A stretch of DNA of 64,000 nt, from the NCBI GenBank assembly GCA_964016885.1, contig OZ024742.1, forward strand, positions 201,686,001-201,750,000, in the 5' to 3' direction. How positions within the stretch are numbered: the first letter of the stretch is position 1; each line of letters starts with the position of its first letter. Positions 22,043 through 35,356 of this stretch are shown here, in pieces. The notes under the pieces are model-generated. The model made no database searches. It worked only from the letters and a program-made list of their open reading frames with translations, and was not told the origin of the DNA. Source of the DNA: Eledone cirrhosa. Lineage: Eukaryota. Made by a program: the position numbers and the translations under genes.

Positions 22043-22162
22043 TAGGAACGAGTAGGACCCCGACGGGGTCCTACTCGTTCCTATTACCCACTCTACTGCC
22101 CTAAGTATTGAGTACTTTGGTGCGTTATGGTCCACCTGGTTCCTTTCCACATTTCCTTCTTT
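22043..22162 (+). mobile_element. Short fold-back insert, family TAGGAACGAG (copy A)
   Basis: 41-bp palindrome TAGGAACGAGTAGGACCCCG-A-CGGGGTCCTACTCGTTCCTA plus a ~79-bp tail, flanked by (TA)n. Confidence 0.8.
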
Positions 22163-22532
22163 ATATATATATATATATATATATATATATATATATATAT
22201 ATATATATATACACACACACACACACACACACATATATATATATATATATATATATATATATATGATAAAACATGTCTATAGAATCATAAGATAAAATAT
22301 ATACCATTTCCTCTCCCAATTAGCATAAGTAATTATATAAAAAAATCGAATAGACCAAGCTATAAGAATGAGGCTTCTATGAAGAAATCTCCAACAAATA
22401 ACCGAAACTAGCCCTTCGCGTCGGCCGCAACGGAATATTTATCGAATATTTCGACAGCGTAATCGCCCAGATACAGTCAACTAAACAGAATTAGGTGTAA
22501 AATAAACTAGGAGAAATAGAATACATTTAAAT

Positions 22533-22620
22533 ACCTCTACCATGGTTTCATCCGCATTTTGAGTTTTCCAATAATTATGTAATAGTTATATAAACTCGAG
22601 CACCGGATTCATCAGGAGAT
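22533..22620 (-). ncRNA. Type I hammerhead ribozyme, intact core
   Basis: Minus strand: ATCTC-CTGATGA-ATCCG...CGGAT-GAAA-CCATGG-TA-GAGGT. Stem I 5 bp, extended stem II, palindromic stem III, GUA cleavage triplet. Confidence 0.88.
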
Positions 22621-23070
22621 TTGCTCTTATCTAGACACTACATTTTCTAAAGTGATCACGCCAAGAATTCATTCAAAATGGCTAAGAATCGATTTTTTAC
22701 ATAGTTAATTATTGGGAGAGGAAATGGTATATATTTTATCTTGTGATTCTATAGACATGTTTTATGATATATAGCTCTGATTATTTAATTTATTAATTTT
22801 TCATTGAGCCACAAAGTGACCCGTTGCAAAACACGTATATGTATATATATGTATATATATATATGTAAACTTTTATATGTAATAATCTCCCATTAGGTTG
22901 AGATACAAATTTGGCTGTATTGTGCTGTGCTTTCTAGCAAAAATGCCACCAGTCGTAAGCAACTACCACACCCCTTCAAACCTGACCGCGGCTACGTCAC
23001 GATTCTTAGCCATTTTGAATGAATTCTTGGCGCGATCACTTTGGAAAATTTAGTGTCTAGATAAGAGTAA

Positions 23071-23158
23071 ATCTCCTAATGAATCCGGCGCTCGAGTTTA
23101 TATAATTATTACATAATTATTGGAAAACTTAAAATTCGGATGAAACCATGGTAGAGGT
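23071..23158 (+). ncRNA. Type I hammerhead, core-mutated copy (CTAATGA)
   Basis: Same stems as 22533-22620 but with G5A in the catalytic core. Confidence 0.75.
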
Positions 23159-23910
23159 ATTTAAATGTATTCTATTTTCTCCTAGTTTATTTTACACCTA
23201 ATTCTGTTTAGTTGACTGTATCTGGGCGATTACGCTGTCGAAATATTCGATAAATATTCCGTTGCGGCCGACACGTAGGGCTAGTTTCGGTTATTTGTTG
23301 GAGATTTCTTCATAGAAGCCTCATTCTTATAGCCTGGTCTATTCGATTTTTTATATAGTTAATTATGCTAATTGGGAGAGGAAATGGTATATATTTTATC
23401 TTGTGATTCTATAGACATGTTTTATGATATATAGCTCTGATTATTTAATTTATTAATTATTCATTGAGCCATAAAGTGACCCGTTGCAAAACACGTATAT
23501 GTATATATATGTATATATATATATATATGTAAACTTTTATATATATATATATATATATAATATATATATATATATATATATATATATATATATATATATA
23601 TATATATATATATATATATATATATATATATATATATATATATATATGTATTGAAAAAAGGAGGCGCACAGGACAGTGGAAGAAAACAACGAGAAGATAT
23701 ATAAATCTACATGTATGTATGTACACCCCTAAACCTTCTTAAATGAGATAATATACGGCAAAACTGAAAACTATATACGAAAAAGACCGCACTACCCGAA
23801 TAGATTCAATACTTCATATATTCTGGCTTACAAATTATCGTTACTTAGTTTTCTATTGTTAGGTGGACGATCTCAAAATGTCGGAATGACTAGCTGCGGA
23901 AATAATACCC

Positions 23911-23989
23911 CAGTGAAACGCGCGGTTTCGACGGGAAAATGTCGGGAGTTTAATATAGTTTTGTATATTACAACTCGTCCCTCGGACTG
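23911..23989 (-). ncRNA. Degenerate hammerhead-like motif
   Basis: Minus strand: CAGT-CCGAGG-GACGAG...CCCGTC-GAAA-CCGCGCGTT-TC-ACTG. Stems I and II are recognisable; core and stem III are damaged. Confidence 0.4.
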
Positions 23990-24169
23990 ATGTATCATGT
24001 TTTTACTAAATTACAGATATGTATATATATATATATATATATATATATATATATATATATATATATATATATATATATATATATATATATATATATATAC
24101 ATACATATATATATATATATATATATATATATATATATATATATATATATATATATATATATATATATA

Positions 24170-24375
24170 TAGGAACGAGTAGGACCCCGACGGCTAAGCT
24201 CAAGCCGTTTCGACGGCTAATTCTGGACTAATTCTGAGTCCAGAATTAGCCTCCGAAACGGCTTGAGCTCATCCGTCGGGGTCCTACTCGTTCCTATTAC
24301 CCACTCTACTACCCTAAGTATTGAGTACTTTGGTGCGTTATGGTCCACCTGGTTCCTTACCACATTTCCTTTGTT
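24170..24375 (+). mobile_element. Fold-back insert, family TAGGAACGAG (copy B)
   Basis: Palindrome 24170-24296 plus a ~79-bp tail. Contains the hammerhead 3' half GAAA-CGGCT...CCG-TC-GGGGTCC. Confidence 0.8.
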
Positions 24376-31940: not shown

Positions 31941-32816
31941 TATATATATATATATATATATATACTTACATTTATATATATACATAATCGTATAAATACA
32001 AACCAATTTCATATCATATCATGTCACATGATATCCATCATATATATATATTTTCAAAACGTTCAAAGCAATTTTTCAAGTTCATATTCTCTTTAACTTC
32101 TATGTATTTTCAACACGCAATTCCTCTCCTCCATTCCTCTATACCACCACTTTCAATCATCTCTCTACTCTAACTCTTCTCTCCTCTTCTATCTATTGCC
32201 TAAGTCGACTGTTAGATGTCATAGCGTTTTACTAGTCTTTCTTTTCGTTTTTACGTCGCACACGAATAAATACATATATTTTTTAATGCTTTCCTGTGGA
32301 TTACCAATGAATCCCAGTTAGGTTATTCAGGATTTACTAATGTCAGAAGAAATATAGGATCTCTTTAATATTCGCAACAGGCGAAATAAATATGACAAGA
32401 TTTACCTGTTTTTATTGTCATATATATATAAATGTGTGTATGTGTGCGTGCGTGTGAATGTGTGCGTGTGTGTTTATATATATTTATATATAGGTATACA
32501 TCTATATCTATATCTATATCTCAATATCTATATCTATATATATCTATCTATCAATCTATCTATCAATCTATGTTACAATCTATGTATCAATCTCTCTCTC
32601 TCTCTCTCTCTCTCTCTCTCTATATATATATATATATATATATATATATATATATATATATATATATATATATACATCCACATACACACATATATATAAA
32701 CTTTTTTAATATTTTCATACATTATTTTCATACATTTATATTTTACTTTTATTTTCTCCAATCCTGCTTTTCTTTTTCCTCCTCCTCCTCCACCACCACA
32801 ACCGCCACCGCCACTT

Positions 32817-32938
32817 TCTTCTTCTTCTTCTTCTTCTTCTTCTTCTTCTTCTTCTTCTTCTTCTTCTTCTTCTTCTTCTTCTTCTTCTTCTTCTTCTTCT
32901 TCTTCTTCTTCTTCTTCTTCTTCTTCTTCTTCTTCTTC
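32817..32938. repeat. (CTT)n microsatellite
   Basis: Direct inspection. Confidence 0.95.
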
Positions 32939-34410
32939 GTATTGTTGCCAATATTATTCATATTCTGTTCTTATTGTTGATGTTGTTGATATTAATATTG
33001 TTATTATTATTATTAAATCAGTTGAATGTGTGTAAGGAGGCCGTAGACGGGGAAAGACATAGATTGAACTCCATGTAGACTCGTCCTTAATGTAGGAAAG
33101 GTTATAGATTGGTAGAGAGAAAGGGAGAGGGAGAGAGCGAAAGAGAGAGAGAGAGATAAATAGATAGAGAGAGAGAGAGATAAATAGATAGAGAGAGAGA
33201 GAGGGAGAGATATAGAGAGATAGAGAGAGAGGGGAGAGGCAAGAGAAAAACCTGTGGATGAGAGCTGGATCTATGTGGTGGAATGAGGAAATGCTTATAC
33301 TACTACTACTACTACTACTACTACTACTACTACTACTAGTATTGCTGCTGCTACTACTACTACTACTACTATTACTACTACCACCAACACAACCACACCA
33401 CCACTACTACTACTACTACTACTACTACTACTACCACTACCACCACCACCACCACCACCACCACCACTACTACTACTACTACTACTACTACTACTACTAC
33501 TACTAACACCACCACAATCACCACCACCACCACTACAACTACGACCACCATGACCATCATCATCATCACAACCAACACCACCTGGTGAGGTTTACTGTGA
33601 CAAATAAATAATACGGTGGACGTGGGTAAAAGTGCAAGAAAAGTCAAGACTTAAACATGTTTGTGTGCCTATAAGTATAAATATATTGATATATAGATAT
33701 ATAGATATGCAATATATAGATATGCTTATGTATATATGTATATATGTTTATATATAAACACACACCCACACACGCACACACATACACATACACACATACA
33801 CACATAAACACACACACATATATATATCTATGAGAGGAAACGTCAAGAAGGGTAAGTGGACATACATTAACTGTAGAAGACAAGATATATCCATATATAT
33901 CCGATAGTTATTACTGTAACATTTGGAGATCACAGAAATAAAACAGGAAAATAAAACAGTATATTTAACCATACTATAAACAACTGCCATATTTTTTCTT
34001 GTCCCCTTCTTCGTACGGACATATGATAACACACACACACACACACACACACACACACACACACACACACACGCACACATACACACACACACATGCACAC
34101 GCACGTGTACAGCTCTTTTTACAAAACGGATTTTTTTCCATTTCAGGTAGTCGCGCTACATCATCCACTTTTCTAAGAAATAAATAATACACAAAACGCC
34201 AGCACCAACAGTTTTGCAACAGATGTCAACATGAATCGAACTGTTATTCCAACCCGCCCATCCCCTCAATATATCTTATTTCTCATTCTTTCGTCTGATG
34301 AAGGACTGGCTTCCGAAACGTTAAGGCCCTCTTCTTGCTATATCAAGCGTTAACCTAATACCTAATACATCCTTTTATATATATATATATATATATATAT
34401 ATATATAATA

Positions 34411-34603
34411 TAATTGTTTCTACTTTTGACACAAAGCCAGCAATTATCCCAGTGTATTACTGGTACTTTATTTTATCGACCTCGTAAGGATGAAAGGCAA
34501 AGCTAACCTCGGCGGGATTTGAACTCAGACCACAAAGGGCCGTAACTCTATGCTGCAAGGCATGGTGTCTGACCCTCTACCGATACTCCCAATCCACTGC
34601 CCT
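34411..34603 (-). mobile_element. SINE copy, full length
   Basis: Reverse-complement match to the family consensus. Confidence 0.85.
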
Positions 34604-34785
34604 CACCATTATTATATATATATATATATAATTTAATATAATATATATATATATATTCCATATATATATATATATTTTCCATTTATCGTTTTCGGTCCGA
34701 CTAACTCACTCGATATGCAAATTAGGCTGCTCAGCCGTTAATATGCATAAGGAAAGTATATACTTTCAATCTGACAGGAAGGTAT

Positions 34786-34828
34786 ACGGTGCAGACGATA
34801 GCTAATAAGCTTGAAACTAGTTCATCGT
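34786..34828 (+). ncRNA. Minimal type I hammerhead with U4A core change, inside a ~270-bp TA-flanked insert (about 34675-34950)
   Basis: ACGGTG-CAGACGA-T-AGCT-AATA-AGCT-T-GAAA-CTAG-TT-CATCGT. Stem I has 6 bp and the stem III loop is the palindrome CTAG. Confidence 0.65.
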
Positions 34829-35164
34829 TCCTTGGTCAGTGTGGAACAAAAGGGCAACGATGGTTGCCGAACACTGTACGGCTTAATTCAGGTTGTTTGT
34901 TTACAAACAAATCGAACATTATAATAAATGTTCGGTAAACCCATACGTACATATATATATATGTGTGCATGTATGTATACATAGTACTGTACGTCCGTAT
35001 ACATATATGTATGTACGTATACATACTTATATATATATATATATATATATATATATATATATATATATATATATATATATATATATATATATATATATAT
35101 ATATATATGTATGTATGTATATATATATATATATATATATATATATATATATATATATATATAT

Positions 35165-35356
35165 AACGAAGGAAATGTGGTAAGGAACCAGGTGGACGAT
35201 AACGCACCAAAGTACTCACTACTTATGGTAGTAGAGTGGGTAATAGGAACGAGTAGGACCCCGACGGCTGAGCTCAAGCCGTTACGACGGCTAATTTGTC
35301 CCGAATCAGCCGTAGAAACGGCTTGAGTTCAGCCGTCGGGGTCCTACTCGTTCCTA
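35165..35356 (-). mobile_element. Fold-back insert, family TAGGAACGAG (copy D)
   Basis: Tail 35165-35243 plus palindrome 35244-35356; long (TA)n on both sides. Confidence 0.8.

Follow-up and report, generated by a model that had tools for sequence, protein, structure and literature searches.

Short palindromic insertions with two fixed 3' ends in Eledone cirrhosa DNA suggest two-ended priming by a Penelope-type element

Introduction

How do the inverted ends and tails of Penelope-like elements (PLEs) come about? A family of very short insertions in a 64,000-nucleotide stretch of Eledone cirrhosa DNA (contig OZ024742.1, positions 201,686,001 to 201,750,000; hereafter the window) bears on this question. 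Four copies of this family, c1 to c4, are present in TA tracts of the window, which is animal DNA rich in microsatellites, its repeat landscape appearing cephalopod-like. An inverted truncated copy and an optional tail of 30-40 bp are described as typical of PLEs, and (TA)n targeting is also described (PMC8557442, PMC3846280). PMC8557442 calls for mechanistic work on these elements. For a different PLE, Poseidon of Anolis carolinensis (PAc), PMC11167929 reports a PLE protein that nicks and extends both target strands in vitro, two internal RNA start sites bounding a tail, and a predicted dimer; later steps are left unvalidated, and in the portion of that source available to us the two start sites are not connected to inverted arms.

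With moderate confidence, we propose that the insertions described here arose by reverse transcription from two fixed start sites, each primed by one cut end of the TA target, followed by joining of the two complementary DNAs (cDNAs) through microhomology.

Results

Four insertions with a common arm end

The initial annotation had noted four copies in TA tracts, and these were found at the positions given there: c1 (22043-22162, +), c2 (24170-24376, +), c3 (31711-31846, -) and c4 (35165-35356, -). Their components and targets are as follows.

21918-22044: (TA)n target tract left of c1 (right tract 22162-22264)
22043-22083, + strand: c1 palindrome, 41 bp (inverted arm 22043-22062, centre base 22063, forward arm 22064-22083)
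22084-22162, + strand: c1 tail, 79 bp, ending in (TA)n
24017-24171: (TA)n target tract left of c2
24170-24229, - strand: c2 inverted tail-less arm, 60 bp, joined to (TA)n via the TAT overlap
24230-24236, + strand: c2 tip, 7 nt, repeating letters of the neighbouring arm
24237-24297, + strand: c2 forward arm, ending at the fixed proximal end 24297
24298-24376, + strand: c2 tail, ending at the fixed distal end in (TA)n
31711-31846, - strand: c3 single copy (arm 31846-31789, tail 31788-31711), with a different allele set
35165-35243, - strand: c4 tail, 79 bp
35244-35356, - strand: c4 palindrome, 113 bp (forward arm 35297-35244, tip 35298-35302, inverted tail-less arm 35356-35303)
35355-35502: (TA)n target tract next to the c4 inverted arm (other side 34998-35165)

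With up to three mismatches, a 22-nt arm motif gave seven matches in the window and none in any of 100 shuffles. The target is (TA)n or AT-rich in all four cases. Three copies contain an inverted, 5'-truncated copy in head-to-head orientation, and c3 is a single 5'-truncated copy without an inverted arm whose TA flanks are degenerate. The palindromes measure 41, 127 and 113 bp in c1, c2 and c4, matching the earlier estimates, and each is followed by an unpaired tail, previously put at about 79 bp, whose length is 78-80 bp and varies with the TA register. Mismatches between the two arms of a copy number 0/20 in c1, 4/60 in c2 and 5/54 in c4, and tails of different copies differ at 4-8 of 78-79 positions. 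As the divergence of arms within a copy is comparable to that of tails between copies, the arms are real and have not been homogenised.

Alignment of the seven arm segments revealed that all three inverted arms end at the identical base, lacking exactly the tail. The arm end that the initial annotation had called invariant is thus the same in every inverted arm of the window, and it recurs in reads and contigs, one of the latter from a second organism. Each inverted arm end overlaps the (TA)n flank by the three nucleotides TAT (3/3). The unit contains four TAT sites, and in the listed 17 of 334 loose-end rows only two of these sites serve as 3' ends; TAT microhomology alone is therefore insufficient to fix the arm end. 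The terminal bases of the insert are identical as an inverted repeat at only 7-8 of 20 positions (3/3 tested), that is, terminal inverted repeats are absent. No tandem array of the family was present in the window.

The c2 tip is nearly private to this copy, with a read depth of ~7 at 24226-24231 compared with ~2,180 at 24238-24243. The idea that it is a relic of the 5' stem II strand of a parent ribozyme was dropped on the basis of this difference in depth. Some further observations concern the sequences around the copies. The tail carries a degenerate direct repeat (24351-24363) of the letters around the proximal end (24291-24303), and each of the two fixed ends is closely preceded by a TTCCT motif, a possible recognition signal. 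The 5' end of c3 adjoins a short, TA-flanked fragment (31847-32045) with a hammerhead-like core at 31889 (+) and a short inverted repeat of its own.

Two fixed 3' ends in reads and contigs

One arm plus tail (24226-24376) was used as a reference for four of ten listed runs. These comprised restriction-site-associated DNA (RAD) reads of organism A (X8; 21,443 of 12,467,656 reads aligned), contigs of the same organism (X1; 14,503 of 16,517,967 aligned), and aligned contigs from organisms other than A (nine in X5 and three in X7). Where sequence ran off the reference, 30 letters were given per loose end. Opposite-strand joints were listed above a threshold of 1%, which favours shallow positions and hides joints at deep ones. 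The 5,894 X8 read ends at 24244 were attributed to cutting by the RAD restriction enzyme at AATT and not to a biological signal, and the read depth close by was set aside with them.

Behind 24297, the loose letters were (AT)n in 3,016 of the 21,443 aligned X8 reads (agreement 0.82). The same junction between arm end and (AT)n was found in 51 of the 14,503 X1 contigs and in one of the nine X5 contigs, which are from another organism, and not in the three X7 contigs; it was thus present in three of the four runs compared. Reads that continue into the tail at 24299 numbered 12,036 in X8 against the 3,016 tail-less ends, a ratio of about 4 to 1, and 1,317 X8 reads pass through the tail end into (TA)n. 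The two fixed 3' ends are 24297 (proximal) and ~24377 (distal). Both in the window copies and in the reads, the 3' ends are fixed and the 5' ends are variable, with truncation to different extents. In addition, one X1 contig leads from the tail end back to 24305, which we read as a partial tandem. The family consists of high-copy, dispersed short insertions, the majority of which, allowing for library bias, do not seem to form hairpins.

The tail-less arm of X5 (record 12) carries T24284 and G24289, which are absent from c1, c2 and c4, and an inverted arm with the c3-type allele at 24271 occurs in ten X1 contigs. Tail-less arms are therefore found on several allele backgrounds, and the fixed end recurs across subfamilies. 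The junctions bear out the fixed arm end genome-wide and in the second organism.

Six opposite-strand joints were listed, leading from 24235-24243 to 24274, 24291, 24307, 24331, 24334 and 24341. In four of the six (24307, 24331, 24334 and 24341), the forward side begins inside the tail. The arms of these four joints do not overlap, and the inverted arm therefore has no template on the tail-bearing strand.

A putative half hammerhead in the arm

The following feature was assigned from reads, shuffles and folding.

24248-24283, + strand: putative 3' half of a type I hammerhead ribozyme

The predicted layout consists of the 3' strand of stem II (24248-24254), GAAA (24255-24258), a 6-bp stem III around a palindromic loop, a cut after 24277, and the 3' strand of stem I (24278-24283). 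A descriptor comprising GAAA, a 6-bp stem and a UC cut triplet was satisfied in 19 of 5,000 shuffles and had ten other matches in 42.5 kb on both strands. Allowing that this descriptor was chosen after the motif had been seen, the half hammerhead, already pointed out in the initial annotation, is unlikely by chance. The tail follows it downstream on the same strand, the 3' end being ~100 nt away, and a palindromic loop such as that found here has been described for PLE hammerheads (PMC4209133). Among the 40 of 130 variant rows listed, none fell in GAAA or in 24275-24283. A common variant at 24271 breaks the closing pair of stem III, and the forward arm of c2 breaks one pair of this predicted stem, the pairing base being present in 97-98% of reads. 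Folding of single units gave no consistent signal (z of +0.74 to -1.47 in five unit folds), and the two tails folded gave z values of -2.06 and -0.20.

As had been reported before, no CTGANGA core was present within or directly upstream of any of the four window copies. The descriptor for full hammerheads was insensitive; it recovered four sites (three in a second family, termed B, and one, probably due to chance, in an open reading frame (ORF)) and missed several minimal ones. A search for the parent with exact motifs gave no matches in viral contigs, metagenome contigs and prokaryote genomes, where animal DNA is not expected, and is uninformative. Rfam gave 105 matches at E <=1 over 1-44000, none at the gathering score and none a ribozyme, and the sub-threshold matches over the copies were driven by TA tracts.

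The proposal that the palindrome tips cluster in hammerhead stems was not sustained. The tips of c2 and c4 lie 5' of the stem II strand, and that of c1 lies at the predicted cut, its forward part starting at, or 2 nt after, this position.

Other families with the same layout

Two unrelated families in the window, B and C, share the layout of inverted arm plus tail.

22258-23543, + strand: family B copy 1, with inverted tail-less arm 22258-22691, partial tandem 22689-23543 and a tail of ~110 bp
24392-25111, - strand: family B copy 2, a partial tandem whose terminal unit ends at the same proximal site, with no inverted partner; hammerhead-like core at 24765
20115-20376, - strand: family C, a 208-bp palindrome (20169-20376) with a tail of ~50 bp in (TA)n

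Family B has an apparently non-coding unit of ~650 bp with a stem II loop of 39-49 nt and alternative 3' ends ~110 bp apart. Copy 1 contains complete hammerhead cores at 22615 (-) and 23076 (+). The 5' end of copy 2 adjoins another element, and an inverted partner may have been lost there. No hammerhead core was found in family C, a second copy of which, single and truncated, is located at 15065-15150.

The window also contains a frameshifted, near-complete PLE of another family at ~26346-31596. Its direct pseudo-long terminal repeats (pLTRs) are ~96% alike and carry minimal hammerhead cores at 26789 and 31418. A frameshifted ORF for reverse transcriptase (RT) and GIY-YIG endonuclease displays the Hydra-type motifs RWR, DKT and CxCx5C and no CCHH; the former three are those given for the (TA)n-targeting Hydra clade in PMC8557442. 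The assignment was made by these motifs, as Pfam left the two PLE frames unrecognised. No sequence similarity was found between this PLE and the c1-c4 family. Between RT and endonuclease it has an asparagine-rich stretch, and a spacer of ~1.5 kb precedes the 3' pLTR; asparagine-rich inserts and spacers have been reported for Adineta PLEs (PMC3846280).

Further features of the window

Three 111-bp tandem units at 25854-26189 are retrozyme-like, with a hammerhead-like core (CTGAGGA ... GAAA) intact only in the first. Short TA-flanked fragments with a hammerhead-like core are also present at 34230-34375 (core at 34295, +) and 35503-35640 (core at 35629, -). A 296-bp palindrome of a 24-26 bp minisatellite, followed by more forward units, occupies 7956-8835, and a 39-bp tandem array of ~549 copies with long Thr-rich open frames extends over 21 kb (42710-63996) to the end of the window. 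A SINE-like (short interspersed element) repeat of ~190 bp is present in more than ten copies, several of them beside (ATTAT)n tracts, at the following positions.

4600-4805, 5641-5823, 7774-7957, 9296-9768, 10485-11599, 15521-15617, 34408-34610 and 41944-42124: SINE-like repeat

A decayed RT fragment resembling those of long interspersed elements (LINEs), with a weak RVT_1 match (E 0.00045), was found at 38785-39897, and a Cys-rich frame of 217 aa without a Pfam match at 19049-19702.

Discussion

Proposed two-ended priming at a TA target

The architecture of the insertions, their fixed ends, high copy number and microhomologies, and the non-overlapping inversion joints are observed here. On the basis of its architecture, the c1-c4 family is likely to be of the Penelope type. 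The copies would be 3'-end fragments of a high-copy, (TA)n-targeting PLE family, or of a non-coding derivative moved by a PLE protein. In the mechanism that we favour, the protein would cleave a TA tract on both strands, exposing two ends that would prime reverse transcription, one at the distal start site at the tail end (~24377) and the other at the proximal site 24297, ~80 nt upstream, both primings being aided by the 3-nt pairing of TAT. The two cDNAs would stop at variable points and be joined head to head by microhomology of 2-3 nt, yielding, in order, (TA)n, the tail-less inverted arm, a variable tip, the forward arm, the tail and (TA)n. Use of a single start site would lead to single copies such as c3, and some tips may have been trimmed by later deletion.

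Two-ended priming would explain the fixed arm end, the single copies, the tail-less direct ends and the non-overlapping inversions without an extra step. It is further supported by family B, which combines this layout with complete hammerheads and whose second copy stops at the proximal site and lacks an inverted partner. For the c1-c4 family we infer that the parent is a PLE, that a single event employs the two start sites, and that the cDNAs are then joined. In a wider, tentative reading, the family would document across the genome that the inverted ends of PLEs form by two-ended priming, with a dimeric RT, two sites 80 nt apart, two templates or one that is reused, and joining by microhomology.

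Several points weigh against PLE parentage and two-ended priming. Each of the six joints is represented by one contig, or by 5-54 reads with 1-3 starts, with the arm ends beyond view; the joints could stem from chimeras in the libraries, from asymmetric deletions or from separate insertions that abut, and their listing shows that the joint types exist, not their frequency or the distribution of tips. The tip of c2 fits a fold-back equally well. Neither a parent, an ORF nor a CTGANGA half was found in the window copies and the 30 loose letters upstream of 24237, which are AT-rich and heterogeneous (agreement 0.44-0.46); a long stem II loop like that of family B would put the core beyond these letters. 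The half-ribozyme helix (-8.5 kcal/mol) competes with a hairpin burying GAAA (-8.0 kcal/mol), and free folding prefers the hairpin. At 78-80 bp, the tail is roughly double the published length of 30-40 bp, which is typical and not strict, and the start sites in PMC11167929 have no homology to the target, in contrast to the TAT overlap observed here.

Alternative explanations

In the self-priming proposed for PLEs in PMC3846280, the tail-bearing cDNA would fold back at a short palindrome, copy itself, and be resolved or re-joined at the fixed proximal site. The loops of only 1-7 nt in all three window palindromes, with tips at short palindromic or repeated letters, agree with this, and three tight hairpins in three cases are easier to obtain in this way than by two independent truncations. 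Moreover, c2 is compatible with a snap-back using a 2-nt microhomology, and the tandem of family B copy 1 contains a full template of its inverted arm, joined by a 3-nt overlap. On the other hand, the arms do not overlap in four of the six joints, the c1 centre base and the c4 tip match the inverted and not the forward strand, and family B copy 2 has a tail-less end without a fold-back. Two of the three tips lie outside the predicted helices, and the fixed arm end would need a separate reason. We therefore regard self-priming as unlikely. The initial annotation had proposed abortive PLE-type insertions in which the cDNA folded back inside ribozyme helices and was re-joined at a fixed TA microhomology. 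Of this proposal, the PLE-type architecture and a short TAT overlap at the arm end stand. The microhomology does not by itself fix the end, and fold-back specifically within the helices fits c1 only, the tips of c2 (24230-24236) and c4 (equivalent to ~24238-24243) being 5' of 24248-24254.

Palindrome centres are generally unstable. Longer hairpins may have been inserted once, or as a few master forms, and spread as a unit, their tips varying through deletion of the centre after insertion. A single deletion between two CGG triplets would turn a c2-like hairpin into c1, and the alignment of c4 to c2 needs no more than a central gap of 14 nt, so that the window tips alone cannot decide the mechanism. 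However, no left-arm-specific change is common to c2 and c4 (which is uninformative if the master was perfect), tail-less arms occur on at least three allele sets, and tail-continuing reads exceed tail-less ones (12,036 against 3,016, subject to library bias). We consider a master hairpin improbable. The TA flanks, the unseen parent and a half ribozyme with an equally stable alternative fold would also suit an element unrelated to PLEs, namely a DNA transposon that targets TA, such as a miniature inverted-repeat transposable element (MITE), a derivative of a Helitron, or a SINE mobilised by a LINE and inverted through twin priming. The absence of terminal inverted repeats rules out a MITE. The variable 5' ends with fixed 3' ends and the recurrence of the layout in the hammerhead-complete family B also argue against this group of elements, as do the absence of tRNA genes in the window (ARAGORN, 0 genes) and of gathering-score Rfam matches in 1-44000; neither search gave a sign of a tRNA-derived SINE head, the parent's 5' end being beyond view. 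We consider a non-PLE origin distinctly improbable. Finally, hairpins and TA tracts are error-prone in assembly and in libraries. A fold-back artefact is refuted for c2 and c4 by the divergence of their arms, which resembles that between copies, and, with the junction of arm end and (AT)n recurring in three of four runs, has next to no probability for the family.

Relation to known elements

In L1 twin priming, the second target end primes internally, producing a 5' inversion in which the internal site is variable and the segments do not overlap. Two-ended priming as proposed here resembles this in the internal priming by the second target end and differs in that the internal site is fixed and the arms often overlap, an overlap that calls for two templates or the reuse of one.

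The layout itself is already known; the family stands apart most notably by the length of its tail, and also by its very short inserts and by the overlap of 3 nt with the target at the proximal site. With endonuclease-bearing PLEs (Penelope of Drosophila virilis, and Pen2a_Av and Pen3a_Av of Adineta vaga, PMC3846280; scheme in PMC8557442), the c1-c4 family shares the head-to-head inverted 5'-truncated copy, palindromic junctions, the one-ended tail, 5' truncation, partial tandems (one X1 contig here) and AT-rich targets. Unlike these elements, the inserts are 120-210 bp long, with no linked ORF or complete hammerhead seen. Two fixed 3' ends bounding a tail and an AT-rich target are common to the family and to Poseidon PAc, for whose model, as proposed here, both target strands are nicked and extended; the PAc tail is short compared with 78-80 bp (PMC11167929). 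Insertion into (TA)n without a readable target duplication is also seen in the (TA)n-targeting clades Hydra, Neptune and Naiad (PMC8557442). Six short motifs of the family had no exact matches in the consensus files of PMC8557442, where line breaks or divergence could hide one, and no resemblance to the Octopus Naiad 3' ends in its supplement was apparent by eye. A complete type I hammerhead in the pLTR is a feature of canonical PLE clades and is absent in Naiad. The 6-bp stem III here is longer than in the Hydra hammerheads listed. Non-LTR (long terminal repeat) retrozymes, which are non-autonomous PLE derivatives (bioRxiv 10.64898/2026.07.22.740005), are likewise short, apparently non-coding, hammerhead-like and dispersed. 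Family B, with its unit of ~650 bp and partial tandem, fits this type, whereas for the c1-c4 family no complete hammerhead or full tandem array was seen in the window. Neither this family nor the two-ended reading, with its link between start sites and inverted pLTRs, was found in the literature searched, most subscription papers lying outside the search.

Implications

In other respects, the c1-c4 family is an ordinary dispersed repeat with no sign of a host function. It provides thousands of very short insertions that fit in single reads, with both ends fixed to the base, and self-priming and two-ended priming can therefore be tested against each other by counting junction geometries in an existing assembly. 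If true, two-ended priming would supersede self-priming as a model and connect the in vitro finding of two start sites with the unexplained inverted pLTR. The length of the tail, ~50-110 bp in the window, would then be a family-specific property.

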